The position numbers and the translations under genes are program-made. From Eubacteriales bacterium (GTDB taxonomy: Bacteria > Bacillota > Clostridia > Oscillospirales > CAG-272), in NCBI GenBank assembly GCA_045629765.1, contig JAZQRW010000159.1, positions 1 to 40,112 of the forward strand: a DNA stretch of 40,112 nt, written 5' to 3'. Each line of letters opens with the position of its first letter. The first letter of the stretch is position 1. This document shows, in pieces, positions 1,675 through 28,368 of this stretch. A model generated the notes under the pieces. It saw nothing but the letters and a program-made list of their open reading frames with translations, did no database searches and had not been told where the DNA came from.

Positions 1675-1720
1675 GAAACAAAAAAGTTAGGGACTCGCCG
1701 AAAAACACGGAAAGTCCCTA
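1675..1720 (-). terminator. Rho-independent terminator closing the four-gene BNR array
   Basis: An 8-bp stem, TAGGGACT (1688-1695) with AGTCCCTA (1713-1720). On the minus strand it is followed by acTTTTTTgtttc. It sits 7 nt after the stop codon at 1727-1729. Confidence 0.7.
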
Positions 1721-1726
1721 TCACTA

Positions 1727-3148
1727 TCAAATCAAGGCTTTATAATCCTTAATCCTATGGAAAGTAATCATATTATTGTCGTGCTCGTCCTTGAGCTTGC
1801 CCCACGCGGTGCGCGAGACGAAGATAATGTCCTCACCGTCAAAGCAGAACGAGACGTAGCCCACACCGTGCTTATCTATTTCGGTACAGTCAAGCACCTC
1901 GGAAAGCTTGCGCCAATTTCTTAAATCCTCCGAGACGGAAAGGGTTACGAGCGAGCGACGGTTTGAAGGATTATTTGCCGTTCTCTCGTTTGAAAGCAGG
2001 AAATAGAGCCCTGTTGCATCATCCCTTTGAACGAAAAATTTACAGCGCATACCGACAGGTGCGTCAACTCGCCCCACAAGCTCAAGAGGCTCGTCAAAGC
2101 TCTTAAGCTTAAACAAAACGCATGCGTTATTAACACCGATTGAGCCCTCGCGCACCTCGTTTGTCATCGGGTCAAGTCGGAGCATATTATAGATTTGACC
2201 GTCGGGGCCTGCGACCGTGTTGCCCTCAATTGCGACAACGTAATCGGCGGTGCTGTTCTCATTAAGGAATTTATCCTGAGGTACGGTGCCAAAGGGAGTG
2301 TGCTCCCAGCTGTCGATATTAAGTAGGTCGGAGTCCACGCTCGCGGATAAAATCGAATGCTCAAAGCCGTGTTCACCGCGGCAACCCCAAGCGCCAATCT
2401 CAAATCCCGTGTATATTCTGCCGTTATGCTCGATTATCGGCATGGCTCCGCGGTGAAGCTCAGCCTCCTTAGGCTTCTTATCGGTGTACATAAGTGTTAC
2501 AGGCTCACTCCAGGTCTTGCCCTCGTCGTGCGACTCAGAAATAACGAAGTTACCGCTCTCGCCAAAGCAACCGAAAAGGTAAAGTCTACCCTTTACTACA
2601 AACGGTGTTGCCCAGTGCAAAGGATTTATCTCGGTCTGATAGTTCCACGTCTTACCGCCGTCGTGTGAAGCATAAACGAAGCCCATTCCCATTCCGCTAC
2701 CGAAGCCGAAAATGTCGTGCGTGGCAAGAAGAGTTCCCGACGGAAGCCTAACGATAGAGGGAGATGCGGGATATATACCCGCAAAGTCGAAGTAAGTCTC
2801 ATTTGGGTGCATATAGTTGATTACAACACCGGGAGGCGAGCAGGGATTGACAAGGCGCGTGTGACTCTTGGCACTCTTATCATCTCTTTCAATAAATATC
2901 TCGTAGTCCGTGTCGTTTCTAAGTCCGCTAACCGTCACAGTCCTATTGTTAAGTGAGTGTGCTGTATATTCTCCGTCCGACTCGTGCGGCTTACAATAGA
3001 GCGTATGTCCGCCGTTACTGCCGTTGTCAAACCACTCGAGAGTAAACTTCGAGTCGCCCGGGGCAAGACGGCAGATATGAGGGGCGTAATACCTCTCAGG
3101 ATTCTTTCTCGGAACGCAGGGCGAGCTTGCCCATTTTAGCTCTTTCAT
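1727..3148 (-). CDS. BNR/Asp-box repeat, sialidase-fold protein with N-terminal Fn3-like domain (paralog 1, most divergent); no signal peptide
   Basis: 473-aa ORF with RBS aGGTGa. Two canonical Asp-boxes, SHDGGKTW and SHDEGKTW, plus a degenerate SEDLRNW. The first-blade pattern VRLPSGTLLATHD resembles the sialidase RIP...LLAxxD motif. The N-terminus MKELKWASSPCVPRKNPERYY is hydrophilic. Confidence 0.85.
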   Translation of the reverse strand: MKELKWASSPCVPRKNPERYYAPHICRLAPGDSKFTLEWFDNGSNGGHTLYCKPHESDGEYTAHSLNNRTVTVSGLRNDTDYEIFIERDDKSAKSHTRLVNPCSPPGVVINYMHPNETYFDFAGIYPASPSIVRLPSGTLLATHDIFGFGSGMGMGFVYASHDGGKTWNYQTEINPLHWATPFVVKGRLYLFGCFGESGNFVISESHDEGKTWSEPVTLMYTDKKPKEAELHRGAMPIIEHNGRIYTGFEIGAWGCRGEHGFEHSILSASVDSDLLNIDSWEHTPFGTVPQDKFLNENSTADYVVAIEGNTVAGPDGQIYNMLRLDPMTNEVREGSIGVNNACVLFKLKSFDEPLELVGRVDAPVGMRCKFFVQRDDATGLYFLLSNERTANNPSNRRSLVTLSVSEDLRNWRKLSEVLDCTEIDKHGVGYVSFCFDGEDIIFVSRTAWGKLKDEHDNNMITFHRIKDYKALI

Positions 3149-3163
3149 GCTATTTCACCTCAA

Positions 3164-3188
3164 ATATGTAAATAATTGTTGTCAATTA
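3164..3188 (-). repeat. Conserved intercistronic junction motif, copy 1 (ATATGTAAATAATtGTTGTCAATTA on the plus strand)
   Basis: The same 22-25 nt block recurs at 4657-4681 and 6129-6150. Each copy ends on the stop codon (TTA on plus, TAA on minus) of the upstream paralog. Confidence 0.8.
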
Positions 3189-4631
3189 AAGCAAATTTCT
3201 GAAGTTTTTCTCCACGTGGAAGGTCATCATATTGTTATCGTGCTGATCCTTAATCTTACCCCACGCTGTTCTTGAAAGATAGCAAAGGTCATCACCGTCA
3301 AATAAGAATGCGGGCTGGCTGACACAATAACCGGGGGTGTCGGTGCAGTTGATAAGCTCCTTGAGCTTCGTCCAATTCTTCAAATCCTTGGACGCGGAAA
3401 GAGTATAAATGCAACGTCTGTTGCCGTTAGGCTTATCAATTCTGCTACCGTACTGACACTCGTTACCAAGCACGAAGTAGTAGCCACTTGCCTCATCGTA
3501 TCTTACGTAGAACATATTACGAAGTCCTACGCACACGTCAACCGTCTGCACGAACTCAAGCGGCTCGTCAAAGCTCTTGAACTTATAAAGCGCCGCCATA
3601 TTGTTAGGCACGGAGAAATCGGAAACAAGAATATTCTCAGCAATCATATGGTCCATACGAATCATATTATAGAGCTCGCCGTCAGGACCTGTTAGTGGGT
3701 TACCCTCAATAGATACGATATAATCGTACTTAACGCCAGGAATATGAATTTTCTCGGTGGGAACTCTGGTAAAGGGAACGTACTCCCAGCTGTTGATGTC
3801 AAAGAGGTCTGCATCAGCAGGTGCTGAAAGCATTGAGCTCTCAAATCCGCGATCGCTCTTTTCGCACCACGCGCCTGCCTCAAAGGACATAAATATTCTG
3901 CCGTTGTGCTCAATAACAGGGGTCTCGGAGAGCTGGAAGCCGGAGCGATTACATCTCTGATAATAATAGTCGCCTCTTAAAATTTCCTTTGGCTCACTCC
4001 AAGTCTTACCCTCATCGAGCGACTCGGAAATAACTATCATCTCAAGAGAAAATCTACCGATAATATAGAGTCTGCCGCGGTGAACGAATGGCTTACACTC
4101 GCAAATTGGGTGAAGCTCACACTGATACTCCCACGTAGCACCCTTATCTCTTGAGATAAATACGATAGAGAATCCGTACTCGCTCTTACCAAACACGTCG
4201 TGTGTCGCAAGATAGTGACCGGAGGGGAGCTTGATAATATTGGGTGTACCAAGGAAATTACCGGCAAAGTCGTAATAATTATCCTCCGGGTGAATGTAGT
4301 TAATTACTACACCGGGCGCGTCGCTTGTATTAACAAGACGCATACGGCTCTTACCGCTCTTATCATCTCTTTCAATGTACAATTCATAGTCAAGAAGATT
4401 GGTAAGACCTGTAACAGTTACGGTCTTTGCGGTAAGCGGAACTGCTGTCCACTCGTCCTCGCTGTCGCGAAGTCGGTAGTAAAGTGTATGTGCGCCGTCG
4501 TTGCCGTTATCAAGCCACTGCATAGTGAATGCACCGTCGGTGGGCGCAAGGCGGCAAATTGTAGGCTCATAATATCTTTCAGGGTGACGAAGTGGCGCAT
4601 GAGGTGCTGCGCACCAATCTAATGATTTCAT
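3186..4631 (-). CDS. BNR/Asp-box repeat, sialidase-fold protein with N-terminal Fn3-like domain (paralog 2); no signal peptide
   Basis: 481-aa ORF with RBS AGGAGGA. Asp-boxes SRDKGATW and SLDEGKTW, plus a degenerate SKDLKNW. It aligns end to end with its neighbours. Confidence 0.85.
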   Translation of the reverse strand: MKSLDWCAAPHAPLRHPERYYEPTICRLAPTDGAFTMQWLDNGNDGAHTLYYRLRDSEDEWTAVPLTAKTVTVTGLTNLLDYELYIERDDKSGKSRMRLVNTSDAPGVVINYIHPEDNYYDFAGNFLGTPNIIKLPSGHYLATHDVFGKSEYGFSIVFISRDKGATWEYQCELHPICECKPFVHRGRLYIIGRFSLEMIVISESLDEGKTWSEPKEILRGDYYYQRCNRSGFQLSETPVIEHNGRIFMSFEAGAWCEKSDRGFESSMLSAPADADLFDINSWEYVPFTRVPTEKIHIPGVKYDYIVSIEGNPLTGPDGELYNMIRMDHMIAENILVSDFSVPNNMAALYKFKSFDEPLEFVQTVDVCVGLRNMFYVRYDEASGYYFVLGNECQYGSRIDKPNGNRRCIYTLSASKDLKNWTKLKELINCTDTPGYCVSQPAFLFDGDDLCYLSRTAWGKIKDQHDNNMMTFHVEKNFRNLL

Positions 4632-4656
4632 ATCAATCCTCCTTATATTCGGTTTA

Positions 4657-4681
4657 ATATGTAAATAATAGTTGTCAATTA
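4657..4681 (-). repeat. Conserved intercistronic junction motif, copy 2 (ATATGTAAATAATaGTTGTCAATTA)
   Basis: Differs from copy 1 at one central position. Confidence 0.8.
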
Positions 4682-6103
4682 TACAAGATTTCTAAAGTTT
4701 TCTTCCTTATGGAACGTAACGAGATTATTGTCGTGCTGGTCCTTAATTCTTCCCCATGCAGTTCTCGAAGCATAGTAGAGGTCGTCGCCTTCAAAGAAGA
4801 ATGCAGGCTGGCTCACGCAATAGCCCGGGCGGTCGGTACAGTTGATAAGCTCCTTAACCTTACGCCAATTTTTAAGGTCGCGTGAGACGGATAGAGTGTA
4901 AATGCAGCGTCTGTTGCCGATACCTGCAATGCACTCGTTACCGAGGAGGAAATAGTAGCCTGTCTTCTCATCATACCTTACGAAGAACATATTACGAAGT
5001 CCTACGCATACGTCAACAGTCTGTACGAATTCGAGTGGCTCATCAAAGCTCTTGAATTTATAAAGCGCCGCCATATTATTGGGACTTGAGAAGTCGGAGT
5101 TGCAAATATCGTCGGCAATCATATGGTCCATACGAATAAGGTTATAAAGCTCACCGTCAGGAGCAACAAGGGGGTTGCCCTCTATTGACACGATATAGTC
5201 GTACCTGACGTTAGGAATATGGATTTTATCAAGCGCAACCTTAGTAAACGGAACGAACTCCCAGCTATCCTTATCAAGAAGATTCGAGTCAAGGGGGGCT
5301 GACATCATTGAGCTGACAAATGAGTTCTCGTTAGTAAGTGCCCACGCGCCAACCTCAAATGAGAAGAATATTCTATCTTTATATACGGTCGGCGCAGTTT
5401 CGGAAAGCTGTATCATAGAGCGCTGTACGCCGTCGTAATACATATCAGAGCGAATAAGCACTGTAGGCTGTGTCCAGGTCTTACCCTCGTCGAGTGACTC
5501 CATAATACCTATATCTCTGATGTAACCGCCAATCATATAGAGTCTGCCGTTATGTATAAACGGCTTACCCTCGCGGAATGGGTGAAGCTCACACTGGTAC
5601 TCCCAAGTTGCGCCCTTATCCCTTGAGATAAAGACGAATGAGAAGCCGAACTCACTCTTACCGAAAACGTCGCAGGTGGCAAGGAAGTTGCCCGATGGGA
5701 GATTAATGATGTTGGGCGTACCGAGGAAGTTACCCGCAAAATCGTAGTAGTTATCATCCGGGTGAATGTAGTTGATTACGACACCGGGAGCATCACACAG
5801 ATTTATCAGTCGTGTACGGCTCTTACCACTCTTGTCGTCTCTCTCAATATAAAGCTCGTAGTCAACGAGGTTCTCAAGTCCCTCGACCTTAACAGACCTT
5901 GCGTTAAGCGGAAGGCTCATCCACTCGTCCTCACTGCCGCGGAGTCTGTAATAAAGGGTGTGCGCGCCGTCACTGCCGTTGTCAAACCACTCTAAAGAGA
6001 ACGAGCAGTCAGCAGGCGCAAGTCGGCAAATATAAGGCTCATAATATCTTTCGGGGTGTCTTATCGGTGCGTGCGGTGTCGCACCCCATACGTTAGCTTT
6101 CAT
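4679..6103 (-). CDS. BNR/Asp-box repeat, sialidase-fold protein with N-terminal Fn3-like domain (paralog 3); no signal peptide
   Basis: 474-aa ORF with RBS tAGGAGa. Asp-boxes SRDKGATW and SLDEGKTW, plus a degenerate SRDLKNW. Confidence 0.85.
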   Translation of the reverse strand: MKANVWGATPHAPIRHPERYYEPYICRLAPADCSFSLEWFDNGSDGAHTLYYRLRGSEDEWMSLPLNARSVKVEGLENLVDYELYIERDDKSGKSRTRLINLCDAPGVVINYIHPDDNYYDFAGNFLGTPNIINLPSGNFLATCDVFGKSEFGFSFVFISRDKGATWEYQCELHPFREGKPFIHNGRLYMIGGYIRDIGIMESLDEGKTWTQPTVLIRSDMYYDGVQRSMIQLSETAPTVYKDRIFFSFEVGAWALTNENSFVSSMMSAPLDSNLLDKDSWEFVPFTKVALDKIHIPNVRYDYIVSIEGNPLVAPDGELYNLIRMDHMIADDICNSDFSSPNNMAALYKFKSFDEPLEFVQTVDVCVGLRNMFFVRYDEKTGYYFLLGNECIAGIGNRRCIYTLSVSRDLKNWRKVKELINCTDRPGYCVSQPAFFFEGDDLYYASRTAWGRIKDQHDNNLVTFHKEENFRNLV

Positions 6104-6128
6104 ATTTTTCTCCTAAAATACCAAGGTT

Positions 6129-6150
6129 TGTAAATAATCGTTGTCAATTA
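6129..6150 (-). repeat. Conserved intercistronic junction motif, copy 3 (TGTAAATAATcGTTGTCAATTA)
   Basis: 21 of 22 positions are shared by all three copies. The single variable base is the same position (t/a/c) in each copy. Confidence 0.8.
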
Positions 6151-7578
6151 GAGCAGGTTTCTAAAGTTCTTCTCCACGTGGAATGTCATCATATTGTTAT
6201 CGTGCTGATCCTTAACCTTACCCCACGCAGTTCTCGAAAGGTAGCAAAGGTCATCGCCGTCAATAGCAAAGGACGGCTGGCTCACGCAATAGCCGAGGCG
6301 GTCGGAGCAATTGATAAGCTCCTTAAGCTTGCGCCAATTTCTTAAATCGCTCGACACGGAGAGAGTATAGATGCAACGGCGCTTAGGGTCAGCCTCGTAC
6401 GACTCGTTGCCGAGAGTGAAGTAAAGCCCTGTTTTCTCATCACGCATAGTAAAGAACATCTTGCGGAGTCCGACCGGAATATCTACCGTCTGCACGAACT
6501 CAAGCGGCTCGTCAAAGCTCTTAAATCTGTAAAGTGAAGCCATATTATAAGGCACGGAATAATCGGAGTTACAAATATCCTCTGCAATCATATGGTTAAT
6601 TCTAATTAAATTGTAAAGCTCCCCGTCGGGGCCGGAAATCGGGTTGCCCTCGATCTCAAATACATAGTCGCACTTGATTTTATCAAGCTTTGGAAGTATC
6701 TTATCCTGAGGTGCTGTGGTAAGAGGTACGTACTCCCAGTTATCAGCATTGAGCAAGTCTGCATCAGCAGGTGCCGACATCATAGAGCTTTCAAAGCCCC
6801 AAGGCCCGATAAGCGCCCACGCGCCAATTTCAAATGAGAATACAATCCTGCCGTTATGCTCGATAACCGGAGTTTCCGAAAGCTGTACCATAGAGCGATG
6901 AACACCGTTAAAATAGCTGTCGGTGCGGAAGAGGGTGACGGGCTTGCTCCAAGTCTTGCCCTCGTCGAGTGACTCGGTAATACCTATATCCTTAGCAAGT
7001 CCGCCTATCATATACAATCTGCCGTTGTGCACGAATGGCTTACACTCACGGAATGGGTGAAGCTCGCACTGATATTCCCAAGTTGCACCCTTATCCCTTG
7101 AGATAAACACGATACCGAAGCCGTGCTCGCTCTTGCCGAATACGTCGTGAGTAGCAATATAATTGCCTGAGGGAAGTATAAAGATATTAGGCGTGCCAAG
7201 GAAATTACCCGCAAAATCGTAGTAATTATCCTCAGGGTGAATATAGTTTATAACAACGCCGGGGGCATCACATGGATTAACAAGACGTGTGCGACTCCTA
7301 CCGCTCTTATCATTTCTTTCAATATAAAATTCATAGTCAACGAGATTTTGAAGCCCCGTAACGGTCACAGTCCTTGCGATAAGTGGCATTGATGTCCACT
7401 CGTCCTCGCTGCCGCGTAGTCTATAATAAAGGGTGTGTGCGCCGTCATTACCGTTATCAAGCCACTCAAGAGTAAACGAACTGTCTGCAGGCGAAAGACG
7501 GCAGATGTACGGCTCGTAATATCTTTCGGGGTGACGAAGCGGCGCGTGTGGTGTTGCACACCAATTTTGTACTTTCAT
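6148..7578 (-). CDS. BNR/Asp-box repeat, sialidase-fold protein with N-terminal Fn3-like domain (paralog 4, promoter-proximal); no signal peptide
   Basis: 476-aa ORF with RBS GAGGAaa. Asp-boxes SRDKGATW and SLDEGKTW, plus a degenerate SSDLRNW. Confidence 0.85.
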   Translation of the reverse strand: MKVQNWCATPHAPLRHPERYYEPYICRLSPADSSFTLEWLDNGNDGAHTLYYRLRGSEDEWTSMPLIARTVTVTGLQNLVDYEFYIERNDKSGRSRTRLVNPCDAPGVVINYIHPEDNYYDFAGNFLGTPNIFILPSGNYIATHDVFGKSEHGFGIVFISRDKGATWEYQCELHPFRECKPFVHNGRLYMIGGLAKDIGITESLDEGKTWSKPVTLFRTDSYFNGVHRSMVQLSETPVIEHNGRIVFSFEIGAWALIGPWGFESSMMSAPADADLLNADNWEYVPLTTAPQDKILPKLDKIKCDYVFEIEGNPISGPDGELYNLIRINHMIAEDICNSDYSVPYNMASLYRFKSFDEPLEFVQTVDIPVGLRKMFFTMRDEKTGLYFTLGNESYEADPKRRCIYTLSVSSDLRNWRKLKELINCSDRLGYCVSQPSFAIDGDDLCYLSRTAWGKVKDQHDNNMMTFHVEKNFRNLL

Positions 7579-7628
7579 TTGTTTTTCCTCAAACTTTCAT
7601 TCAATTGCGAAGAATACTCGCCACCGCC

Positions 7629-7657
7629 ATAATAACATAACATTTATGTTATGTCAA
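7629..7657 (-). promoter_or_regulatory. Sigma-A promoter of the BNR array with an embedded palindromic operator candidate
   Basis: Minus strand reads TTGACA (7657-7652), a 17-nt spacer, then TATTAT (7634-7629). The spacer holds a perfect inverted repeat, ACATAACAT-tt-ATGTTATGT (7635-7654). The -10 element is about 50 nt upstream of the ATG at 7578. Confidence 0.65.
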
Positions 7658-7749
7658 GGAATTTTACAAAATATCCAAACATTTTTTTGAAGGAATTACA
7701 ATTACGAAGAACAACGCCCGAAAACTCAATATAAAGGGCAAATTATATA

Positions 7750-11237: not shown

Positions 11238-11266
11238 GGAGAAAAAGCGGCAAAGGAGTGGTGAAA

Positions 11267-12604
11267 GTGAATTTAGAAAATAAATACGAATACCCTGCGT
11301 ACGTTATCCTTTTAAGAGGCGTCACTATCTTTGCATTTTTCTTAATAATCAAATTCATGTGTCTTTTCGCTTGCGTTCTGGCAAATTACAGCAGCGGATT
11401 TCCAACCTGGGTTCAACTGCTCCCATGCCTTATTGCATTGCCATTCATTTTCAACTCAATTCTATACGTAACGACCGTATACAACAAACATGAGAGAGAG
11501 CTGTTCTTAAGCTCCGGAGCTTCAAAGCCAACATTAAAATCCGAGCTTAAAAGCATACTCACGGACAAAAATTTTTGGATAGAATACGCGGTTTTATCAA
11601 CTTTAGTTGTCATAACCTCGCTATTAGGCGGATTTTTCGAGTTCGGACTGATAATTTTCCCTGAAGCTGTACAGAGCTTTCTTATCAGAAATCTATTTCC
11701 TATCCCCGTATTACTTATCCTATTTTTACTTATCTCGTTACATCGCAGATATGACGCTAAGCTCTATTGGTATCAGCTTCGAGCACGAGGGGATCTTACA
11801 AGACTTGAGAACACGGTTTTACTAATACCGAGAATTTTAGCAATCATATTCGGCTATCCGCTTCTATTCCCATCGATACTATATGCACTACTCGGCATAT
11901 TCTCGTTTGTAAACATCGTATTAGCTTTAGTCAACGTTATGACACTGCTCGGATTTGTTTTAGTAATTATAAGCATTATACTTTTCACTATGCTTATCCT
12001 GGCGCTGAATTCCATAGTCCTCCGTCACAAGCTCATAAAAAAGCTTAAGGCGGTGGCAAAATCATCGGGCTACAAGCTCTCGGAAATAAAGCGTCCCTAC
12101 GCCTCGATGTTCAGACCGCGCGAGGAATGCAACTTCACACTAGAGTATCAAGGAAAAGTATTTTCATGCCGACTTATCGGCTCGTGGTGGCAGCGCGCAC
12201 CCTTACATTTTATCTCTAAAAAGCACGCCATTTATCTACACAAGGTAGGCACAAGGACACATTTCTTCTCTTACGAATGTCACTTCAACTACGGCTTTGA
12301 GGGTGAAGGAGATAAGCTCCTTATAGTATGCCCAATGCCGAGGTGGCTCTTTGCCTCAGTTGACAATACGGATAAAATTATAACCCCCCAGGACATGAGC
12401 ACGAGCGCTATGATGGCGTCTTACCGCTACGGCGGCTCAATACGTCAGCATTCTTCCTTTGACATCTCCAAGCGCACGTCGGAATACTCACGCGCTCTTG
12501 AAGCAGGTGACAAAATCTGGGGATACGCTATCTACAACACCACCTCGTTTATATCGGCAATTGACCGTAAGTGTCTTGGAAGATATAACGGATTGTTTGA
12601 GTAA
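11267..12604 (+). CDS. Hypothetical polytopic membrane protein with a C-terminal soluble domain of about 190 aa
   Basis: The track ORF starts at 11258. The AGGAG RBS (11254-11258) overlaps that GTG, so the GTG at 11267 (8-nt spacing) is the likelier start. The N-terminal ~260 aa contain about 6-8 hydrophobic helices. The Cys/His/Trp-rich C-terminal part has no motif I recognise. Confidence 0.75.
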   Translation: MNLENKYEYPAYVILLRGVTIFAFFLIIKFMCLFACVLANYSSGFPTWVQLLPCLIALPFIFNSILYVTTVYNKHERELFLSSGASKPTLKSELKSILTDKNFWIEYAVLSTLVVITSLLGGFFEFGLIIFPEAVQSFLIRNLFPIPVLLILFLLISLHRRYDAKLYWYQLRARGDLTRLENTVLLIPRILAIIFGYPLLFPSILYALLGIFSFVNIVLALVNVMTLLGFVLVIISIILFTMLILALNSIVLRHKLIKKLKAVAKSSGYKLSEIKRPYASMFRPREECNFTLEYQGKVFSCRLIGSWWQRAPLHFISKKHAIYLHKVGTRTHFFSYECHFNYGFEGEGDKLLIVCPMPRWLFASVDNTDKIITPQDMSTSAMMASYRYGGSIRQHSSFDISKRTSEYSRALEAGDKIWGYAIYNTTSFISAIDRKCLGRYNGLFE

Positions 12605-20410: not shown

Positions 20411-20467
20411 ACGTTTTCTCCTCTCATTTTTATGCAGCAATTGCGCTTATTTCAAGTCGCTTTTACT

Positions 20468-20496
20468 ATTTTAGCACACTTTTTCAAATTTTTCCA
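20468..20496 (-). promoter_or_regulatory. Putative promoter of topB
   Basis: Minus strand reads TGGAAA (20496-20491), a 17-nt spacer, then TGcTAAAAT with the hexamer at 20473-20468. Confidence 0.45.
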
Positions 20497-20576
20497 CCCT
20501 AAAGACAAATTTTCCCGAATTTTTTATTTTCTGACCAAAACGATGAATAAAATTGCAAGTTTTTTTACTATACCTC

Positions 20577-20605
20577 TTTATTTTTGTTCTATATTATGCT
20601 ATAAT
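20577..20605 (+). promoter_or_regulatory. Putative extended -10 promoter of the nucleoside operon
   Basis: TGcTATAAT, with TG at 20597-20598 and the hexamer at 20600-20605. The -35 (TTTATT, 20577-20582) is weak. It lies about 30 nt upstream of the tdk ATG. Confidence 0.5.
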
Positions 20606-20635
20606 GATTCTGTATCAACTCTTCAAGGAGGCAAA

Positions 20636-21211
20636 ATGGCAAAGCTTTATTTCAAGTACGGCGCTATGGGCTCGTCAAAGACGGCTCAGGTGTTGATCAC
20701 CAAATTTAACTATGAAGAACGCGGAATGAAGGTATGGCTCATCAAGCCTGCACTCGACAACCGTGATGGATCTGACATTCTGCGATCACGCATCGGTATC
20801 GAGGGCGTATGTGAGCCCATCGACAAAAATATTGACATTTACGCGCGTTTTAAGGAAATACAAGGCGACTACAACGTTATAATAGCTGATGAGTCGCAGT
20901 TCTTTACCGAGGAGCAGATTGACCAGATGCGCTCCATCGTAAACGACTATAATATTCCCGTATTATGCTTTGGTCTTAGAACCGACTTCCTTACGCACAT
21001 GTTTAGCGGCAGTAAAAGACTCTTTGAGGTTGCCGACTCTATTGCCGAAATAAAAACTATATGCAACTGCGGTTCTAAAGCTACAGTCAATGCAAGAATT
21101 GACGAACATAGCAATGTGGTGACAGAGGGATCGCAGGTAATGCTCGGCGGCAACGACACCTATATTGCGATGTGCCACAGATGCTGGAAAAAAGCACAGA
21201 ATATTAAATAA
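20636..21211 (+). CDS. tdk: Thymidine kinase
   Basis: The track ORF (from 20432) spans the promoter region. The ATG at 20636 follows the AAGGAGG RBS and gives MAKLYFKYGAMGSSKTAQ (P-loop). Also has IADESQFF and zinc cysteines CNCG...CHRCW. 191 aa. Confidence 0.92.
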   Translation: MAKLYFKYGAMGSSKTAQVLITKFNYEERGMKVWLIKPALDNRDGSDILRSRIGIEGVCEPIDKNIDIYARFKEIQGDYNVIIADESQFFTEEQIDQMRSIVNDYNIPVLCFGLRTDFLTHMFSGSKRLFEVADSIAEIKTICNCGSKATVNARIDEHSNVVTEGSQVMLGGNDTYIAMCHRCWKKAQNIK

Positions 21212-21238
21212 GTAATAATTTGAAATGGAGATATACTT

Positions 21239-21907
21239 ATGAACATCACAGAAATTTTATCAAAATGCGACCACACCTTACTTGACAGATGCGCCACTTG
21301 GGCAGACATCAAAACAATTCTTGATGATGCAATGCACTTCGGCTGTGCGTCAGCGTGCATTCCCCCGAGCTTCGTAAAGCAGGCTAAAGACTATGTAAAG
21401 GGAAACCTTAAGATTTGTACCGTAATCGGCTTCCCCAACGGTTACAACACTACTGCTGTTAAGGTTTATGAGACCGAGCAAGCACTTCTTGAAGGTGCGG
21501 ACGAGATTGATATGGTTATCAACGCAGGCAAGCTCAAGGAAGGACTTTACGACGAAATTCTCGATGAGCTTCGCGCTCTTAAGGCGTGCTGCGGTCCAAA
21601 GGTATTGAAGGTTATTATTGAAACATGTCTTCTTACAGACGAAGAAAAGGTTAAAATGTGTGAGCTCGTTACAGAGAGCGGCGCAGACTTTATCAAGACA
21701 TCTACCGGCTTTTCAAAGGCAGGCGCAACATTTGATGACGTTGCGCTTATGAAAAAGAACGTAGGTAAGTTCGTTAAGGTTAAGGCTGCAGGCGGAATCT
21801 CTTCGCTTGACGATGCCGAGAAGTTCGTTGAGCTTGGTGCCGACCGTCTTGGCACAAGCAAGGTTGTTAAGCTCGCAAAGGCTGAGGCTATAGGCGAGGG
21901 ATATTGA
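21239..21907 (+). CDS. deoC: Deoxyribose-phosphate aldolase
   Basis: 222 aa. Contains VIGFPNG, EIDMVIN and the Schiff-base lysine context DFIKTSTGF, followed by VKAAGGI. Confidence 0.93.
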
Positions 21908-21924
21908 TTTAAAGGAGAAACACA

Positions 21925-22650
21925 ATGAATAAGAACCATACACCGCATATAAATGCAAATCCCGAGGATTTTGCTAAAACCGTGCTTATGCCCGGTGACC
22001 CTCTGCGCTCTAAGTTTATTGCAGAGAACTTTTTAACAGATGCAAAGCTCGTTAACAACGTGCGCGGCATTCAGGGCTACACAGGCTACTACAACGGCAA
22101 GCGCGTATCCGTAATGGCAAGCGGTATGGGTATGCCATCTATCGGCATCTACTCCTACGAGCTCTTTAATTTCTTCGGCGTTGAAAACATTATCCGCATC
22201 GGCTCTGCCGGCGGTATCTCCGAGCAGGTAAAGATGCGTGATATTATCGTAGGTATGGGAGCTTGCACAACATCCAATTACGCAGTTCAGTACGGTCTTG
22301 AGGGAACTTACGCTCCTATTGCATCATACGAGCTTGTTAAGGCTGTAGTTGAAGAGGCGGAGAAGCTCGGTGCACCCTATGCAGTAGGTAATCTTCTCTC
22401 ATCCGACATCTTCTACAACGCAAATCCCGAGGCACGTGAAAAGTGGACGCGTATGGGCGTTCTCGGCGTAGAGATGGAGGCGGCGGCGCTCTACATGAAC
22501 GCGGCATACGCAGGCAAGCGCGCACTCGCAATCTGCACCGTTTCCGATCATCTCTTGACAGGTGAGGCTGTAGACGCCGAGGCAAGACAGAACTCTTTTA
22601 CAGAAATGATGAAGATTGCGCTTAACGTAGCAGCAAGATATGCTGATTAA
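21925..22650 (+). CDS. deoD: Purine nucleoside phosphorylase, DeoD type
   Basis: 241 aa. Contains TPHINA, VLMPGDPLR, SGMGMPSIGIYSYEL and VEMEAAALY. Confidence 0.92.
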   Translation: MNKNHTPHINANPEDFAKTVLMPGDPLRSKFIAENFLTDAKLVNNVRGIQGYTGYYNGKRVSVMASGMGMPSIGIYSYELFNFFGVENIIRIGSAGGISEQVKMRDIIVGMGACTTSNYAVQYGLEGTYAPIASYELVKAVVEEAEKLGAPYAVGNLLSSDIFYNANPEAREKWTRMGVLGVEMEAAALYMNAAYAGKRALAICTVSDHLLTGEAVDAEARQNSFTEMMKIALNVAARYAD

Positions 22651-22682
22651 CCAAATATGCCAACAAAGGTTTACAAAATAGT

Positions 22683-23828
22683 ATGAAAAAAGCAAAAAGA
22701 GTATTTTTAATCGTGCTTGACTCGGTTGGTATTGGCTACGAGCCGGATGCTCAATTATTCGGTGACGTCGGCGCAAATACCATGAAGAGCATATCAAGCT
22801 CGGCTAAATTTAATATACCGAACCTTATCTCTTTAGGTCTTTCTCACATCGACGGCGTGGACTATTTACCGAAGGTCGATAAGCCACTCGCCACCGTAGG
22901 CAGACTTCAAGAAGAGAGTATGGGTAAGGACACGACGATAGGACATTGGGAGATTTGCGGCATTGTTTCAAAAACACCTCTGCCAACGTATCCCGATGGC
23001 TTCCCAAAGGAGCTACTTGACGAATTTTCAAGAAGAGTCGGACGTGGGGTTCTTTGTAACAAGCCGTACTCTGGCACAGACGTTATCCGTGACTACGGTG
23101 ACGAGCATTTAAGAACGGGTGACTTAATCGTTTACACCTCTGCGGACAGCGTATTTCAGATTGCCGCACACGAGGATTTAATCCCACTTGAAAAGCTGTA
23201 TGATTACTGTAAAATTGCAAGAGAGCTTCTCGTAGGTGAGCACGGTGTCGGCAGAGTTATAGCACGCCCATTCACCACCAAGGACGGTGTTTACACAAGA
23301 ACCGCAAACAGACACGACTACTCACTGATACCCCCGAGAGCGACCGTGCTTAACGCTCTTAGGGATAACGGCAAGGACGTAATCGCTATAGGTAAAATCA
23401 CAGATATATTTGCAGGCTCGGGTATTACACAGACAATCTTTACCCACGGAAACGCCGAGGGTATAGAAAAGACGATAGAATGCACGAAGCGCGACTTTGA
23501 GGGCTTGTGCTTTACAAACCTTGTAGACTTTGATATGCTCTACGGTCATAGACAGGATAAGGACGGCTATGCCGAGGCACTATCTTACTTTGACAAAAAT
23601 CTTCCTCTCATTATGGAAAATCTTGGCGAGGACGATTGTCTGATTATCACCGCTGATCACGGCTGTGACCCTGCTGACAAGAGCACCGATCACACTCGTG
23701 AGTACATTCCCTTTATACTTTACAGAAAAGGTGAGAAGGTCGAAAATCTCGGTACAAAGCTCGGTTTTTACAACATTGCAACAACGGTTGCTGAACTTCT
23801 TGACGTGCCGTACACGGTAGAAAAATAG
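22683..23828 (+). CDS. deoB: Phosphopentomutase
   Basis: 381 aa. Contains IVLDSVGIG, KDTTIGHWE and ITADHGCDP, the metal-binding motifs of the alkaline-phosphatase superfamily DeoB. Confidence 0.92.
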   Translation: MKKAKRVFLIVLDSVGIGYEPDAQLFGDVGANTMKSISSSAKFNIPNLISLGLSHIDGVDYLPKVDKPLATVGRLQEESMGKDTTIGHWEICGIVSKTPLPTYPDGFPKELLDEFSRRVGRGVLCNKPYSGTDVIRDYGDEHLRTGDLIVYTSADSVFQIAAHEDLIPLEKLYDYCKIARELLVGEHGVGRVIARPFTTKDGVYTRTANRHDYSLIPPRATVLNALRDNGKDVIAIGKITDIFAGSGITQTIFTHGNAEGIEKTIECTKRDFEGLCFTNLVDFDMLYGHRQDKDGYAEALSYFDKNLPLIMENLGEDDCLIITADHGCDPADKSTDHTREYIPFILYRKGEKVENLGTKLGFYNIATTVAELLDVPYTVEK

Positions 23829-23865
23829 AATTTCGACAACCTAACTTTACATTTTAAGGTGTTTT

Positions 23866-24285
23866 ATGAAAAATATCAAATACACAAACGAGGAACTATG
23901 GGCTCTCGCCGACAAGGCCCGTGAGTCATCATACTGCCCCTATTCAAGCTATTCCGTAGGTGCGGCGCTCCTTACGGGGAGCGGCAAGGTGTACCTCGGT
24001 GCAAACATTGAGAACGCATCGTTCACACCAACAGTATGCGCTGAGCGAGTTGCATTCTTCAAGGCGATAAACGAGGGTGAAAGAGACTTCGTCGCTATCG
24101 CTATCGCAGGAGGTGAGGTTGGAAAGCCAGCCAAGCCGGACTTTCCGCCATGTGGTGTATGCCGTCAAGTTATGGGCGAATTTTGCTCTCCCGGTTTCAT
24201 CGTCATCTGGGGAAATAGCGAAAAAATCACCGTTAAAACCTTAGGAGAAATTCTTCCCTTCGGTTTCGATAAGAGCAGTTTATAA
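23866..24285 (+). CDS. cdd: Cytidine deaminase (small homotetrameric type)
   Basis: 139 aa. Contains the zinc motifs CAERVA and PCGVCRQVMGEF. Confidence 0.92.
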   Translation: MKNIKYTNEELWALADKARESSYCPYSSYSVGAALLTGSGKVYLGANIENASFTPTVCAERVAFFKAINEGERDFVAIAIAGGEVGKPAKPDFPPCGVCRQVMGEFCSPGFIVIWGNSEKITVKTLGEILPFGFDKSSL

Positions 24286-24313
24286 ACGACAATTAACGAA
24301 AAAGGAATAAGCT

Positions 24314-25087
24314 ATGCAGGATATAGGAACACAGTTTCACATCAGATGCAACGTAGGTGACGTAGGTCGCTACGTATTCCTCCCCGGTGACCCCGGCAGA
24401 TGCGAGGAGATTGCAAAGCATTTTGACAACCCTGTACACGTGGGTATGAACAGAGAATACAATATTTACACCGGCACATTGCTCGGCGAGAAGGTTTCGG
24501 TATGCTCTACCGGTATCGGCGGTCCATCCGCGTCTATCGCTATGGAGGAGCTTACGGCAATCGGTGCTGACACGTTTATACGTATCGGAACCTGCGGAGG
24601 TATTGACCTCGACGTACAACCGGGCGATATCGTTGTTGCTACGGGCGCTATCCGCTTCGAGCACACGTCCATGGAATATGCTCCAATCGAGTTCCCTGCA
24701 GTATCAGACTTTGGCATTGCGGCGGCACTCAAAGAGGCGAGCGAGAGTCTAGGCTATCGCACTCACACCGGCGTAGTACAATGCAAGGATGCGTTCTACG
24801 GACAGCACGCACCCGAGAAGTCGCCCGTATATTACGAGCTTCTTCAAAAGTGGGAGAGCTGGAAACGTCTCGGCGTTAAGGCGAGTGAGATGGAATCCGC
24901 CGCCCTCTTCGTAGTTGCGGCAGCCTTGCACGTTCGTTGCGGCAGCTGCTTCCACGCAGTATGGAATCAGGAAAGAGAAAAACTCGGTATGAGTATGCCT
25001 ATGAGTGAGGACACCACTGGCGCAATTCGAGTCGGTATTGAGGCGATGAAAAGCATTATTGCCGAGGATCTTAAGAGCAAGATCTAA
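24314..25087 (+). CDS. udp: Uridine phosphorylase (NP-I family)
   Basis: 257 aa. [36 protein letters not shown] and EMESAAL align closely by eye with E. coli Udp. Confidence 0.85.
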
Positions 25088-25430: not shown

Positions 25431-28232
25431 ATGACAAAAAAACGAAATTTCAGAGGACTGTATTTTACTAGAGAAGCGCCCTTCGCTCACGAGAACGATA
25501 TAAAGCATATTTCAAACGACGTCACGCACCTTGAGGACGGCTGGGAGCGCTGGTCATTGCCAATCGGCAACGGATACGCCGGCGCGGTTTTGCTCGGCAG
25601 AGTGAAGACAGACAGAATTCAACTTACCGAAAAGAGCTTTGGCAACTGCTATTACTGCGGTGTTGGCAGACAGAGCCTTGGCGGTGTACAGAATTTCTGC
25701 GACGTTTTCTTGGATTTCGGCCATTCGTTCGACGAGGTTACAGGCTACGAGCGCTACCTTGATATAACAAGCGGTGTGGCAACGCTTGAGTACACGTGTA
25801 AGGGTGTTAAGTACACTCGTGAGTATCTTATGTCATATCCCGACAAGGTGCTTGCAGTAAAGCTTTCTGCATCGGAAAAGGGCAAGATTTCATTCACTCT
25901 CCGACCTGAAATTCCATTTATCGGACACGTCTTTAACGAGTTTGAAGGTCAGTCGTATGACGATGAGGCAGAGCGTACCGGAAGCCTGCACGCAAGCACC
26001 GTAGATAATAATGGTGTGACGGAGGGATGCATCACACTTGACGGACATCTTCAGTGGTTTGACGTAACAGGTGCGGCAAGCATGCGGCTTATTCCTTATG
26101 GCGAGAATGCAAAAATTACGAGTGCAAATGCTGAATGTGACGTAGTGTGGGAAGCAGAAAATAAAATGTTCCACACGGTTGGCGGCTCTACGGTGACAGT
26201 TAATGATGCCGACGAGGTTGTCCTCCTTATCACGCTTGGTACGGATTACCAAATGCACGAGTCCATATTCAACGAACAGGCGCATGCGAAGAAGATATCA
26301 GCCCTAAAGAAAACAAACGCGTACGTACCCGCAAGGGAAAAGGTCGACGCCGATATGGCAAGGGCGAGCGCATATACATACGACGAAATAAAAGCACGGC
26401 ATATAGAGGACGCAGGAAAGATACTCAGCCGTGTAGACGTAACGCTTGGAGGCGAATGGGCGTCCACCACAGACGAGCTTGTAAGACAATATAACAAGCC
26501 TACAGGCGATGACGGACAGTACACTGTAAGTGACAAAAAGCGTGACCTCTACCTTGAGGAATTGCAGTTCTTGTACGGCCGTTATCTGCTCCTTGCTTCA
26601 TCAAGAAAGGGCACGCTACCTGCGAATTTGCAGGGTGCCTGGACACGCTATCAGCTCTCCCCCTGGGGTTGTGGTATGTGGCACAACATCAACGAGCAAC
26701 AAAACTACTGGCCCGCTTGCACGACTAATATGCCCGAGGTGTTCGAGGGCTATCTTGATTATTGGCAGGCATATTTGCCAGCGTCCAAAAATCTCACGTC
26801 TGAGCTCGTCAAGGAAAGATTGCCTAAGAAATACGGCAAGGACGGCTCAAACGGCTGGACTATCGGCACGGGTGCATTCCCTTGGATGATGAATGCATCG
26901 AGCGCACTCGGAAATATGGGTCTGACAATTCCTATGTTCTGGGACTACTACGATTTTTCCGGCGACCCCGAGAAGTTAAAGGCAGTCTTTACTGCGCTAT
27001 ACGAGGCGGCGGCGTTTATGACAAAATCGGTAGTTAAGCGCGGTGACAAATACTTGAGCATTCATGGTGACTCGGCAGAACAGCACGTAAACGGTGTATG
27101 GTACTTTACCGAGGGCACAACATACGACCAGGCAGGACTCTATTACGTCGGCTCAAAGCTGCTTTTAGCGGCAAAGATGCTCGGATACAAGGACTCTGAC
27201 TATCCGGTTCTTAAGACGGTTAAAAAGCAAATCAACCACTACGACCAATCACCCGTCGGATATTCAGGTCAGATAAAGGAATTCCGCGAGGAAAATTACT
27301 ACGGTGAGCTCGGTGAATACGAGCACAGACACATCTCGCAGCTCATCGGTCTATACCCCTGCGACAGCATAACCCCTGCGACACCCGCTTGGCTCGATGC
27401 GGCAGGTGTTGCGCTTCGTGAACGAGGCGGCTTGGGAATTAAGGTAGGCTCGCTTATGGGTGCGCACGGTATCGTACACCGTCTACCCGCTTGGGCAAGG
27501 CTTAAAAACGGTGAATACTCACATATCTTTGTACGTGAATTCTTATCACGCTATATCGGCACCAACCTCTGGAGCCTTGGCAATATGTTCCAGATAGACG
27601 GTGACCTCGGCTACACAGGCGCTATGGCGGAAATGCTCTTACAGAGCCACGAGGGCTATATTGACGTAATACCCGCTATACCAAAGGCGTGGGCAAGCGG
27701 AAACTTTAAGGGACTGTCTGCTCGCGGCGGATATTCGATCGATGCAAAATGGCAAAGCGGTAAGCTAAAGAAAATCTGCGTAAATGCAGGCGAGTTCTCA
27801 GATAAGTGCAAAATCAAGCTTGGCAACACCGAAGACGTTGTCGTTAAATGCGACGGCAAAAAGGTAAGATATACCGAGTGTGACGGCGTTATCGCCTTTA
27901 GCACAAAGCCCGGCAAGGCATACGTAATTACAGGAATGAAGCCGATTAAGCAGCCTAAAATTCCAAGCGGATTTGCTGTAAAATCAGTAAAGAAGGACTG
28001 TATCAAGCTCTCCTGGCGTAAATCAAAAGACGCTGTAAGCTACAACTTATATATAGCAAACGAGAGTGCGCCAAGCTACACACTCTACCTTGCTAATATA
28101 TGCGACACCTCGGCTGTCTATAAGATAAGCGACGAGGCCGAGCTCAAAATACGCAGAACGTACAGGCTGTGCGCCGTTGATGAGAACGGTATCGAAAGCC
28201 AGGGTGCGCTTTGCTACACTGTTCCGGTTTAG
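25431..28232 (+). CDS. GH95-like glycoside hydrolase (alpha-L-fucosidase/galactosidase-type fold) with C-terminal Fn3; no signal peptide
   Basis: 933 aa with a GGAGG RBS. GH95-type motifs: LPIGNGYAGAV...RIQLTE, NLQGAWT...WHNINEQQNYWP (Asn-x-Asn), GDSAEQH (acid Glu position) and FQIDGDLGYTGAMAEMLLQSHEG. The C-terminal ~90 aa form an Fn3-like domain (LSWRKSKDAVSYNLY...YRLCAVDENG). The N-terminus MTKKRNFRGLYFTRE is hydrophilic. Confidence 0.85.
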   Translation: MTKKRNFRGLYFTREAPFAHENDIKHISNDVTHLEDGWERWSLPIGNGYAGAVLLGRVKTDRIQLTEKSFGNCYYCGVGRQSLGGVQNFCDVFLDFGHSFDEVTGYERYLDITSGVATLEYTCKGVKYTREYLMSYPDKVLAVKLSASEKGKISFTLRPEIPFIGHVFNEFEGQSYDDEAERTGSLHASTVDNNGVTEGCITLDGHLQWFDVTGAASMRLIPYGENAKITSANAECDVVWEAENKMFHTVGGSTVTVNDADEVVLLITLGTDYQMHESIFNEQAHAKKISALKKTNAYVPAREKVDADMARASAYTYDEIKARHIEDAGKILSRVDVTLGGEWASTTDELVRQYNKPTGDDGQYTVSDKKRDLYLEELQFLYGRYLLLASSRKGTLPANLQGAWTRYQLSPWGCGMWHNINEQQNYWPACTTNMPEVFEGYLDYWQAYLPASKNLTSELVKERLPKKYGKDGSNGWTIGTGAFPWMMNASSALGNMGLTIPMFWDYYDFSGDPEKLKAVFTALYEAAAFMTKSVVKRGDKYLSIHGDSAEQHVNGVWYFTEGTTYDQAGLYYVGSKLLLAAKMLGYKDSDYPVLKTVKKQINHYDQSPVGYSGQIKEFREENYYGELGEYEHRHISQLIGLYPCDSITPATPAWLDAAGVALRERGGLGIKVGSLMGAHGIVHRLPAWARLKNGEYSHIFVREFLSRYIGTNLWSLGNMFQIDGDLGYTGAMAEMLLQSHEGYIDVIPAIPKAWASGNFKGLSARGGYSIDAKWQSGKLKKICVNAGEFSDKCKIKLGNTEDVVVKCDGKKVRYTECDGVIAFSTKPGKAYVITGMKPIKQPKIPSGFAVKSVKKDCIKLSWRKSKDAVSYNLYIANESAPSYTLYLANICDTSAVYKISDEAELKIRRTYRLCAVDENGIESQGALCYTVPV

Positions 28233-28269: not shown

Positions 28270-28368
28270 ATGAAAGCATATTCAATAAGCAACAGAATAA
28301 CCTCATTGGCGATATGCCTTGCAATGCTTATTTCACTTGTAGCCTCTACGGGTCTTGTATCATTCGCT
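28270..28368 (+). other. Predicted Sec signal peptide of the giant protein
   Basis: MKAYSISNRITSLAICLAMLISLVASTGLVSFA|IDV: a basic n-region, a hydrophobic core of about 20 aa, then a small-residue site (SFA). Confidence 0.7.

Follow-up and report, generated by a model that had tools for sequence, protein, structure and literature searches.

Sialidase-fold enzymes are central to the harvest of acidic sugars by gut microbes, and their catalytic rules (arginine triad, Tyr/Glu, Asp) are considered settled. Within glycoside hydrolase family 33 (GH33), the Kdo (3-deoxy-D-manno-octulosonate) hydrolase represented by the C-terminal domain of BT1013, which functions in the degradation of rhamnogalacturonan II (RG-II), and the KDNases have the sialidase fold and release non-sialic 2-keto-3-deoxy ulosonic acids (PMC13501991). 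Here we analyse a tandem array of four genes, hereafter called par1 to par4, in a stretch of 40,112 nucleotides from a Clostridia genome (Eubacteriales bacterium, assembly GCA_045629765.1, contig JAZQRW010000159.1), which as a whole is referred to as the window. A previous inspection of the same DNA, made from the letters alone and hereafter called the sequence-only reading, had predicted the four products to be cytoplasmic paralogues and had put them forward as a candidate for an undescribed enzyme family or system. As judged from its sequences, the par family is sister to the GH33 sialidases, large and without a characterised member, with a known fold and a modified catalytic constellation, and it breaks two of the GH33 rules family-wide, namely those of the FRIP arginine and of the acid/base loop. 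The four genes of the operon are not equivalent, because par1 keeps the conserved site of the family whereas par2-4 represent a rare derived subtype without Tyr434 (residue numbers follow par4 throughout).

AlphaFold2 models, run with an alignment of 105 sequences, were obtained for par4 (predicted local distance difference test, pLDDT, 96.0; predicted template-modelling score, pTM, 0.94) and for par1 (pLDDT 93.8, pTM 0.93). In both, residues 24-100 form a beta-sandwich of seven strands, after which come six blades of four strands each (at least 24 strands). The top Foldseek matches in the PDB are nearly all GH33 sialidases at 10-17% identity: par4 matches best a Porphyromonas gingivalis structure (8t1z, E = 3e-13), with Clostridium perfringens NanH (8ub5) at a template-modelling score (TMt) of 0.60, and par1 matches best 8t24 (E = 3e-14), with NanH (8um0) at TMt 0.66. 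For par1, the GH93 arabinanase 3a71 follows just behind the GH33 enzymes (E = 4e-11, TMt 0.65), and the family profile search also matched GH93 (E = 1e-7). No close relative of the par proteins was found by Foldseek among the solved structures of the PDB, identity being at most 17% to any solved sialidase. The N-terminal domain, approximately residues 20-100 of par4, is Fn3-like in the model; the family profile matches the Fn3 repeats of titin and fibronectin at positions 33-99 (E = 2e-10), and the par proteins score 12-16 bits with Pfam fn3, under its curated cutoff of 25. The propeller carries two canonical Asp-boxes, S160xDxGxTW (160-167) and S203xDxGKTW (203-210), with degenerate ones at 268-281 and 409-415, and the S, D, G and W of these boxes are invariant or nearly so across the 105 relatives. 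The models and the Foldseek matches thus agree with the Fn3-like domain and six-bladed sialidase-type propeller proposed in the sequence-only reading, and the end-to-end alignment with two canonical and further degenerate Asp-boxes on which that proposal was based is equally confirmed.

With Pfam BNR_2 (PF13088) the four par proteins score 24.1, 27.1, 17.2 and 18.1 bits, under the gathering threshold of 31.4, which some relatives exceed (P0013, 38.6; P0023, 36.2; P0098, 35.3 bits). None of the four matches any NCBIfam model, and no Pfam or NCBIfam model dedicated to the par clade exists. A profile search run exhaustively over 1.84 billion representative sequences returned 1,123 clusters (50% identity) at E <= 1e-30, spread over Clostridia, Paenibacillus and Bacteroidota, the nearest relatives of the window proteins belonging to gut metagenome-assembled genomes (MAGs) of Acutalibacteraceae, Christensenellales and other Clostridia. 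The database names of these relatives are only 'hypothetical', 'sialidase family protein' and 'exo-alpha-sialidase', and neither a characterised family member nor a locus for the catabolism of Kdo or other ulosonic acids in Firmicutes was found in the literature. The idea of an undescribed enzyme family therefore stands insofar as no characterised relative was found, but the family, with more than 1,100 clusters automatically labelled as sialidases, is neither small nor unseen; the label 'exo-alpha-sialidase' is probably wrong for its members. Among the top 134 full-length matches of the profile search, hereafter the 134 representatives, 70 have the Fn3-plus-propeller architecture, 67 of them without a signal-like N-terminus, and 44 are long multidomain forms, of which 36 carry such an N-terminus. 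An anti-phage defence or phage function was also considered and was ruled out, PADLOC and PHROGs giving no matches at E <= 0.01.

The family is defined by the constellation E310/R326/R401/R449/Y434, part of which can be placed on that of GH33. The comparison of the family profile with C. perfringens NanI equates E310 with E539 and R326 with R555, and hhalign against a complete GH33 protein of Fulvitalea (WP_338395378; 85% probability, 270 columns) places E310 on the Glu, R326 on Arg2 and R401 on Arg3. The second and third GH33 arginines are accordingly represented in register by R326 and R401, invariant in the family, and the whole set E310, R326, R401 and R449 is essentially invariant among the 134 representatives. 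The FRIP arginine (R266 of NanI, the RIP arginine of Fulvitalea) falls on family column 128, where par2-4 have G and par1 has A; this column is occupied by G in 68, C in 30, A in 19 and S in 9 of the representatives, and by Arg in none. The 'R-(I/L)-P' that the sequence-only reading had taken as a sialidase hallmark does not hold as such, since the motif lies six residues downstream of the FRIP column; its first position, R or K family-wide, is R in par1 alone among the four, with K in par2, N in par3 and I in par4. Being out of register with the GH33 arginine, the motif is a look-alike of FRIP. The acid/base Asp loop of GH33 (SSDLPNPVD) is a nine-residue insertion relative to the par family, which at this position has the consensus P-Q-N, or S-E-(H/F/Y)-G in par2-4.

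Residues R244, R449, H459 and N462 are invariant and peculiar to the family, which also has Y434, located in the first strand of blade VI and present in 127 of the 134 representatives (95%) and in par1. R449 lies 15 residues past Y434 in a cross-strand position, an arrangement as for the GH33 Glu that holds Arg1, and from this spacing it probably supplies the missing third carboxylate-binding guanidinium. A profile of blades V-VI alone, run against PDB sequences for the register of R401, Y434 and R449, returned nothing significant. Two proteins were tried as bridges to GH33 and rejected: a plasmid-encoded 'exo-alpha-sialidase' of Ligilactobacillus is C-terminally truncated and its alignment locked out of register on the Asp-boxes, and a BNR_2 protein neighbouring a family gene in locus L015 gave a register for R326, for R401 and for the strand with the Tyr, although it is no textbook sialidase and lacks relatives in the PDB.

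Within the operon, par1 keeps the family consensus W178, E196, K374 and Y434, whereas par2-4 have E178, one of K, R and L at position 196, M374 and the pair S433-Q434 (E178, K196, M374, S433 and Q434 in par4), after which the variant is here called the S-Q subtype. Further divergence of par2-4 is found at positions 128, 152-153, 230-235 and 402. These proteins have gained E151, E178 and E235 together with Tyr430, which is four residues before 434 on the same strand face, and they retain E310, R326, R401, R449, R244, H459 and N462. The S-Q state is shared with six relatives of Acutalibacteraceae type (P0014, P0016 and P0019-22) and is rare overall, Q434 being present in two of the 134 representatives. 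Neighbour-joining trees unite par1 with par2-4 (97-100% bootstrap) and in no case recover the S-Q proteins as monophyletic; a single S-Q clade is ruled out (0% bootstrap support). Y434 therefore seems to have been lost twice, with the identical S433-Q434 replacement each time, or else par1 held the canonical, ancestral state within a co-evolving array.

Par2, par3 and par4 are 73-74% identical to one another and par1 is 49-53% identical to them, in line with the relationship that the sequence-only reading had estimated by eye. In a 29-aa peptide identical among paralogues, 8 of 87 nucleotides differ, all at third codon positions, and between paralogues synonymous divergence (dS) is saturated at 1.3-3.0 with a ratio of nonsynonymous to synonymous divergence (dN/dS) of 0.10-0.19. 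The duplications are therefore old and the genes kept by selection, as had been proposed, and recent amplification as the origin of the array is ruled out by paralogue dS of at least 1.3. Between the window and a related locus of another species, L002, orthologue dN/dS is 0.034 for par4, 0.055 for par3, 0.099 for par2 and 0.129 for par1; purifying selection is strong on all four copies. Orthologue dS is unusually low for par2 (0.26) and lies at 0.92-1.04 for par3, par4 and par1, compared with values of 1.22 (serC), 2.4 (ExoIII-like gene) and 3.1 (MatE) in the flanking genes, which are 73-90% identical. The low dS of the propeller genes could reflect codon-usage selection through high expression, or recent exchange between species or gene conversion, especially for par2. 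Sites that differ among par2, par3 and par4 yet are conserved within each orthologue pair make up 37% in top-face loops versus 16% in bottom loops (Fisher p = 0.004), the face of each loop being assigned from the strand order of the propeller topology. On this assignment, the enrichment of paralogue-specific substitutions on the predicted active-site face supports specialisation of the paralogues. It lends some weight to the battery of specificity-diverged enzymes envisaged in the sequence-only reading, but the genes of that battery are not alike, par1 being canonical and par2-4 of the rare subtype. None of the four proteins has an N-terminal hydrophobic segment (maximum Kyte-Doolittle hydropathy, KD(9), <= 0.81), and they are probably cytoplasmic, as predicted earlier.

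The gene neighbourhoods of relatives hint at the substrate class. A locus search with a narrower alignment gave only 17 loci. Of the 16 canonical-type loci with usable flanks, at least 11 have a gene for a pyruvate aldolase or lyase that adjoins the propeller gene or shares its operon. These neighbours (table 1) belong to the dihydrodipicolinate synthase (DHDPS) family, to the HpcH/HpaI family or to RraA-like proteins, and the last three canonical loci, picked blind to their neighbours as an independent test, all have an aldolase. That three unrelated aldolase folds occupy the same position suggests non-orthologous displacement, with different enzymes performing a single necessary reaction, the splitting of a 4-hydroxy-2-oxo (2-keto-3-deoxy) acid. 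Also recurrent at canonical loci are sugar importers of the ATP-binding cassette (ABC) type with substrate-binding proteins, IclR or AraC regulators, FGGY or PfkB kinases, a fucose-isomerase-like gene or SIS isomerase, esterases of the GDSL type and additional BNR propellers. One of the kinases is a true ribulokinase, encoded in the same locus as a GH127 protein. A second, shorter BNR-type propeller of 338-415 aa without Fn3 is common at canonical loci; those of L015, L016 and L029 pass the BNR_2 threshold, and that of L025 remains below both cutoffs (BNR 25.8, BNR_2 19.6 bits). Their presence suggests multi-propeller pathways.

Arrays recur in relatives as well. In L002 the corresponding slot between serC and bipA is filled by five copies in tandem, the extra copy lying between the orthologues of par2 and par1 and being 71-74% identical to par2-4; one Acutalibacteraceae MAG has three clustered copies and a fourth elsewhere (L006, L007), and in L025 two members of the family occur together with a further BNR protein. 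The informative neighbours found in relatives (aldolases, ABC importers, kinases, esterases) had been missed by the sequence-only reading. The S-Q genes have different surroundings. In L001 and L006 they are accompanied by an AEC/Mem_trans transporter, DUF4886 (SGNH) proteins and AraC or GalT. L007, L023 and L024 show a housekeeping setting in which a single S-Q gene is followed by an unannotated protein of 270-279 aa and then by a gene of the 'small multidrug export' family. In L007 and L023 a CinA-sortase fusion precedes the S-Q gene; in L024 the contig ends within the upstream gene, for which there is no Pfam record.

Taken together, the results are compatible with a joint explanation that we consider about equally likely to be right or wrong. 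Canonical members would be cytoplasmic exo-glycosidases acting on imported oligosaccharides, from which they would release a carboxylated 2-keto-3-deoxy, that is ulosonic-type, sugar to be split by the neighbouring pyruvate aldolase. Within the operon, par1 would keep this canonical machinery, and par2-4 would be neofunctionalised, still binding a carboxylate with altered chemistry or substrate, and would be co-expressed with par1 from a strong, probably regulated promoter. The neofunctionalised state of par2-4 is suggested by the purifying selection on all four genes combined with the location of the differences on the predicted active-site face. Kdo aldolase yields D-arabinose and pyruvate, and Kdo would fit as the substrate because the neighbouring pentose kinases and isomerases could be accounted for in this way; KDN (2-keto-3-deoxynononic acid), Dha (3-deoxy-D-lyxo-heptulosarate) or others are possible. 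The ties with aldolases suggest that sugars of the 2-keto-3-deoxy acid type, such as Kdo, KDN or Dha from plant RG-II, lipopolysaccharides or capsules, are processed in the cytoplasm by a pathway that has gone unrecognised.

Several observations weigh against this joint explanation. Near the operon in the window there is no aldolase, transporter or regulator gene, and none of the seven variant-subtype loci (the window, L002, L001, L006, L007, L023 and L024) has an aldolase; the pathway deduced from canonical loci may therefore not transfer to par2-4. The DHDPS and HpcH aldolases of canonical loci match no characterised equivalog, such as NanA, DapA, KdgD, HpaI or GarL, and contexts with GH127 plus ribulokinase, GH88 or GH29 would equally suit neutral or uronic substrates. 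The GH33 tyrosine falls in a gap of the hhalign alignment, so that its equivalence with Y434 is at most putative, and it is from propeller topology and residue spacing that R449, Y434/Y430 and the newly gained glutamates are placed in the putative active site.

Other explanations have to be considered alongside. An extended version of the joint explanation would see par2-4 and their Acutalibacteraceae relatives as a new catalytic class, in which the carboxylate-binding arginines are kept, the Tyr nucleophile is swapped for the new glutamates or for the relocated Tyr430, and the substrate is a small acidic metabolite of the cytoplasm rather than a glycan, handled by four to five specialised copies under a strong, probably regulated promoter and a conserved 19-nt control element between the genes. 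A new GH family, for the catabolism of ulosonic-acid glycosides in the cytoplasm, would then be warranted for the parent family (E-R-R-R-Y without the FRIP Arg). We regard this as possible though somewhat unlikely. That par2-4 are instead non-catalytic 'pseudo-sialidases', namely carbohydrate-binding or regulatory proteins that have lost the Tyr nucleophile and serve as cytoplasmic binders, sensors or partners of an active par1, appears unlikely too. The tyrosine present in 95% of the family has become Gln in these proteins, W178, E196 and K374 are gone as well, these positions vary across the S-Q subtype without being fixed to new residues, and variant genes occur in housekeeping contexts that are not catabolic; strong selection would fit a binding role equally. 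However, the seven residues from E310 to N462 listed above as retained are unchanged in par2-4, whose orthologue dN/dS of 0.03-0.10 is stricter than that of par1; the acidic residues they gained and Tyr430 are found on the same face, and the S-Q genes of L001 and L006 are accompanied by an AEC transporter, esterases of the DUF4886/SGNH type, AraC and GalT, a set that looks catabolic.

A glycosidase resembling GH93 or another member of clan GH-E, acting on a neutral sugar such as arabinofuranose by carboxylate catalysis, seems improbable even for par2-4, for which it is best conceivable given their gain of E151, E178 and E235. The closeness of GH93 to GH33 in the par1 structural matches and in the profile search, together with the relative found beside GH127 and a true ribulokinase, would agree with such an enzyme, but four invariant arginines and a GH33-type Glu-Arg pair point to a carboxylate ligand, and the dominant neighbour is a pyruvate aldolase rather than a pentose pathway. 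It is very improbable that the par proteins are ordinary GH33 exo-alpha-sialidases releasing N-acetylneuraminic acid (Neu5Ac) that are merely intracellular, like C. perfringens NanH or mammalian NEU2, in spite of the automated labels of their relatives, of the sialidases being their best structural matches and of the conservation of E, R2 and R3. The absence of arginine from the FRIP column in all 134 representatives, the deleted acid/base Asp loop, the sub-threshold BNR_2 scores without any NCBIfam match and the identity of no more than 17% to solved sialidases speak against it. Moreover, inspection of the window neighbours found no nanA, nanK or nanE near the operon, in agreement with the sequence-only reading, which had noted the lack of these and of transporter and regulator genes, and the DHDPS neighbours of relatives reach 29-44 bits with NanA models that have cutoffs of 281-382. 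Under the joint explanation, the operon would constitute a natural experiment, with one canonical and three remodelled active sites all under selection, which tests the re-tooling of the sialidase scaffold.

The predicted expression signals of the array are given in table 1. The coordinates and lengths of the four minus-strand open reading frames (ORFs) are exactly those proposed before, their gaps are 44, 47 and 37 nt, and a ribosome-binding site (RBS) of GGAG type precedes every start. The single strong promoter and the single terminator proposed for the operon were likewise recovered. The promoter upstream of par4 is the top-scoring promoter-like site within the first 9.2 kb, and the terminator had escaped a simple scan because its loop is branched. 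The serC-like gene upstream of the array ends in a terminator of its own and bipA/typA begins downstream; with their own promoter and terminator, the four par genes therefore form a self-contained unit. The spacer between the -35 and -10 boxes of the promoter contains the palindrome AACATAAATGTT, with the counterpart ACATATCTAATATGT in L002, which suggests a candidate operator or repressor site; no regulator gene adjoins this promoter. The promoter and the 5' untranslated region (5' UTR) of about 50 nt are almost identical between the window (7579-7660, minus) and L002 (6960-7054), where flanking genes have dS above 1.2; the fold of the 5' UTR hairpin is not significant in the window (z = -0.33).

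All seven internal spacers of the window and L002 carry directly after the TAA stop a 19-nt element, TTGACAACnATTATTTACA, of which 17-18 of the 19 nt are invariant. Beyond the element the spacers vary, and no copy follows the last gene. When the TAA stop is included, the palindrome TAATTG-ACAA-CAATTA results. The element has no -10 box at proper spacing, RNA folding gave no conserved or significant structure for it, and an Rfam search of the window gave no match; the element may be an operator, a processing site or a promoter remnant.

Table 1. Features of the par operon, of the rest of the window and of related loci.
Feature	Sequence	Positions	Strand	Basis or remark
par4, first gene, 476 aa	window	6148-7578	minus	ORF; variant S-Q subtype
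par3, 474 aa	window	4679-6103	minus	ORF; variant S-Q subtype
par2, 481 aa	window	3186-4631	minus	ORF; variant S-Q subtype
par1, last gene, 473 aa	window	1727-3148	minus	ORF; canonical-type
Operon promoter TTGACA-17 nt-TG-TATTAT	window	7629-7657	minus	promoter scan, 11/12 positions matched, extended -10
5' UTR with small GCGA/TCGC hairpin and RBS GAGGA	window	7579-7628	minus	sequence read; conserved vs L002
Conserved intercistronic element TTGACAACGATTATTTACA	window	6129-6147	minus	directly 3' of par4 stop codon
Conserved intercistronic element TTGACAACTATTATTTACA	window	4660-4678	minus	spacer after par3
Conserved intercistronic element TTGACAACAATTATTTACA	window	3167-3185	minus	spacer after par2
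Intrinsic terminator GGGACUUUCCG...CGGCGAGUCCC then U-run	window	1675-1720	minus	hairpin fold -19.2 kcal/mol, z = -3.63
448-aa ORF	window	11258-12604	plus	several hydrophobic segments, no Pfam match
Nucleoside-salvage operon	window	20432-25087	plus	
First GH95 gene	window	25431-28232	plus	alpha-L-fucosidase/galactosidase-type
Second GH95 gene, 2,655 aa	window	28270-36237	plus	alpha-L-fucosidase/galactosidase-type
Array of five tandem copies	L002	7055-14396		
19-nt spacer element, four copies	L002	8486-8504, 9955-9973, 11447-11465, 12938-12956		
DHDPS-family aldolase neighbours	L005, L011, L013, L015, L025, L028, L030			canonical-type loci
HpcH/HpaI-family aldolase neighbours	L009, L010, L014			canonical-type loci
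RraA-like neighbour	L029			canonical-type locus
Second propeller	L015	7833-8939		
Second propeller	L016	188-1243		
Second propeller	L025	6741-7988		
Second propeller	L029	10574-11590		
Unannotated protein, 270-279 aa	L007	11461-12300		
Unannotated protein, 270-279 aa	L023	9462-10274		
Unannotated protein, 270-279 aa	L024	2524-3351		

The genes neighbouring the array in the window encode serC, a MATE exporter (MatE), an ExoIII-like nuclease, TrmO and bipA. In L002, AcnX genes are inserted between MatE and serC, and the 448-aa ORF of the window has a conserved counterpart there next to TrmO (438 aa, likewise without Pfam match). The window further contains genes for a tRNA synthetase, a topoisomerase and ATP synthase, a compact operon for nucleoside salvage (thymidine kinase, DeoC aldolase, two PNP/UDP-family phosphorylases, a phosphopentomutase-like metalloenzyme and cytidine deaminase) and two GH95 genes in tandem, from which the host is evidently a glycan degrader. 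In the second GH95 protein a galactose-binding domain of the NedA-like kind is present, and its long C-terminal region is unannotated.

Compared with described systems, the par proteins resemble most closely those GH33 enzymes that have an N-terminal beta-sandwich, such as P. gingivalis PG_0352, Bacteroides thetaiotaomicron BTSA and Tannerella forsythia NanH, in which a six-bladed Asp-box propeller follows the sandwich. They share with GH33 the nucleophile-activating Glu and the second and third arginines in register (E310, R326, R401), the conserved Tyr on the first strand of their blade VI may correspond to that of GH33, and their signal-less form has a precedent in the small cytoplasmic NanH of C. 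perfringens. Unlike GH33 sialidases, to which their identity does not exceed 17% at TM scores of about 0.5-0.66, they lack the FRIP arginine and the acid/base loop, add the invariant R449, R244, H459 and N462 and have no neighbours for sialic-acid catabolism, and three of the four window copies are without Tyr434. The substrates of the Kdo hydrolase and the KDNases belong to the class that is suggested for canonical members by their aldolase, kinase and isomerase neighbours, which by analogy would be a likeness of function only; enzymes of the BT1013 type and KDNases are, unlike the par proteins, secreted or periplasmic GH33 members. The GH93 exo-alpha-L-1,5-arabinanases (Arb93A, Abnx) are similar to the par family in having a propeller of clan GH-E, in giving comparable Foldseek scores with par1 and in missing the full arginine triad; they are, however, secreted fungal enzymes with a Glu/Glu mechanism and no conserved arginine, whereas the par family keeps four invariant arginines.

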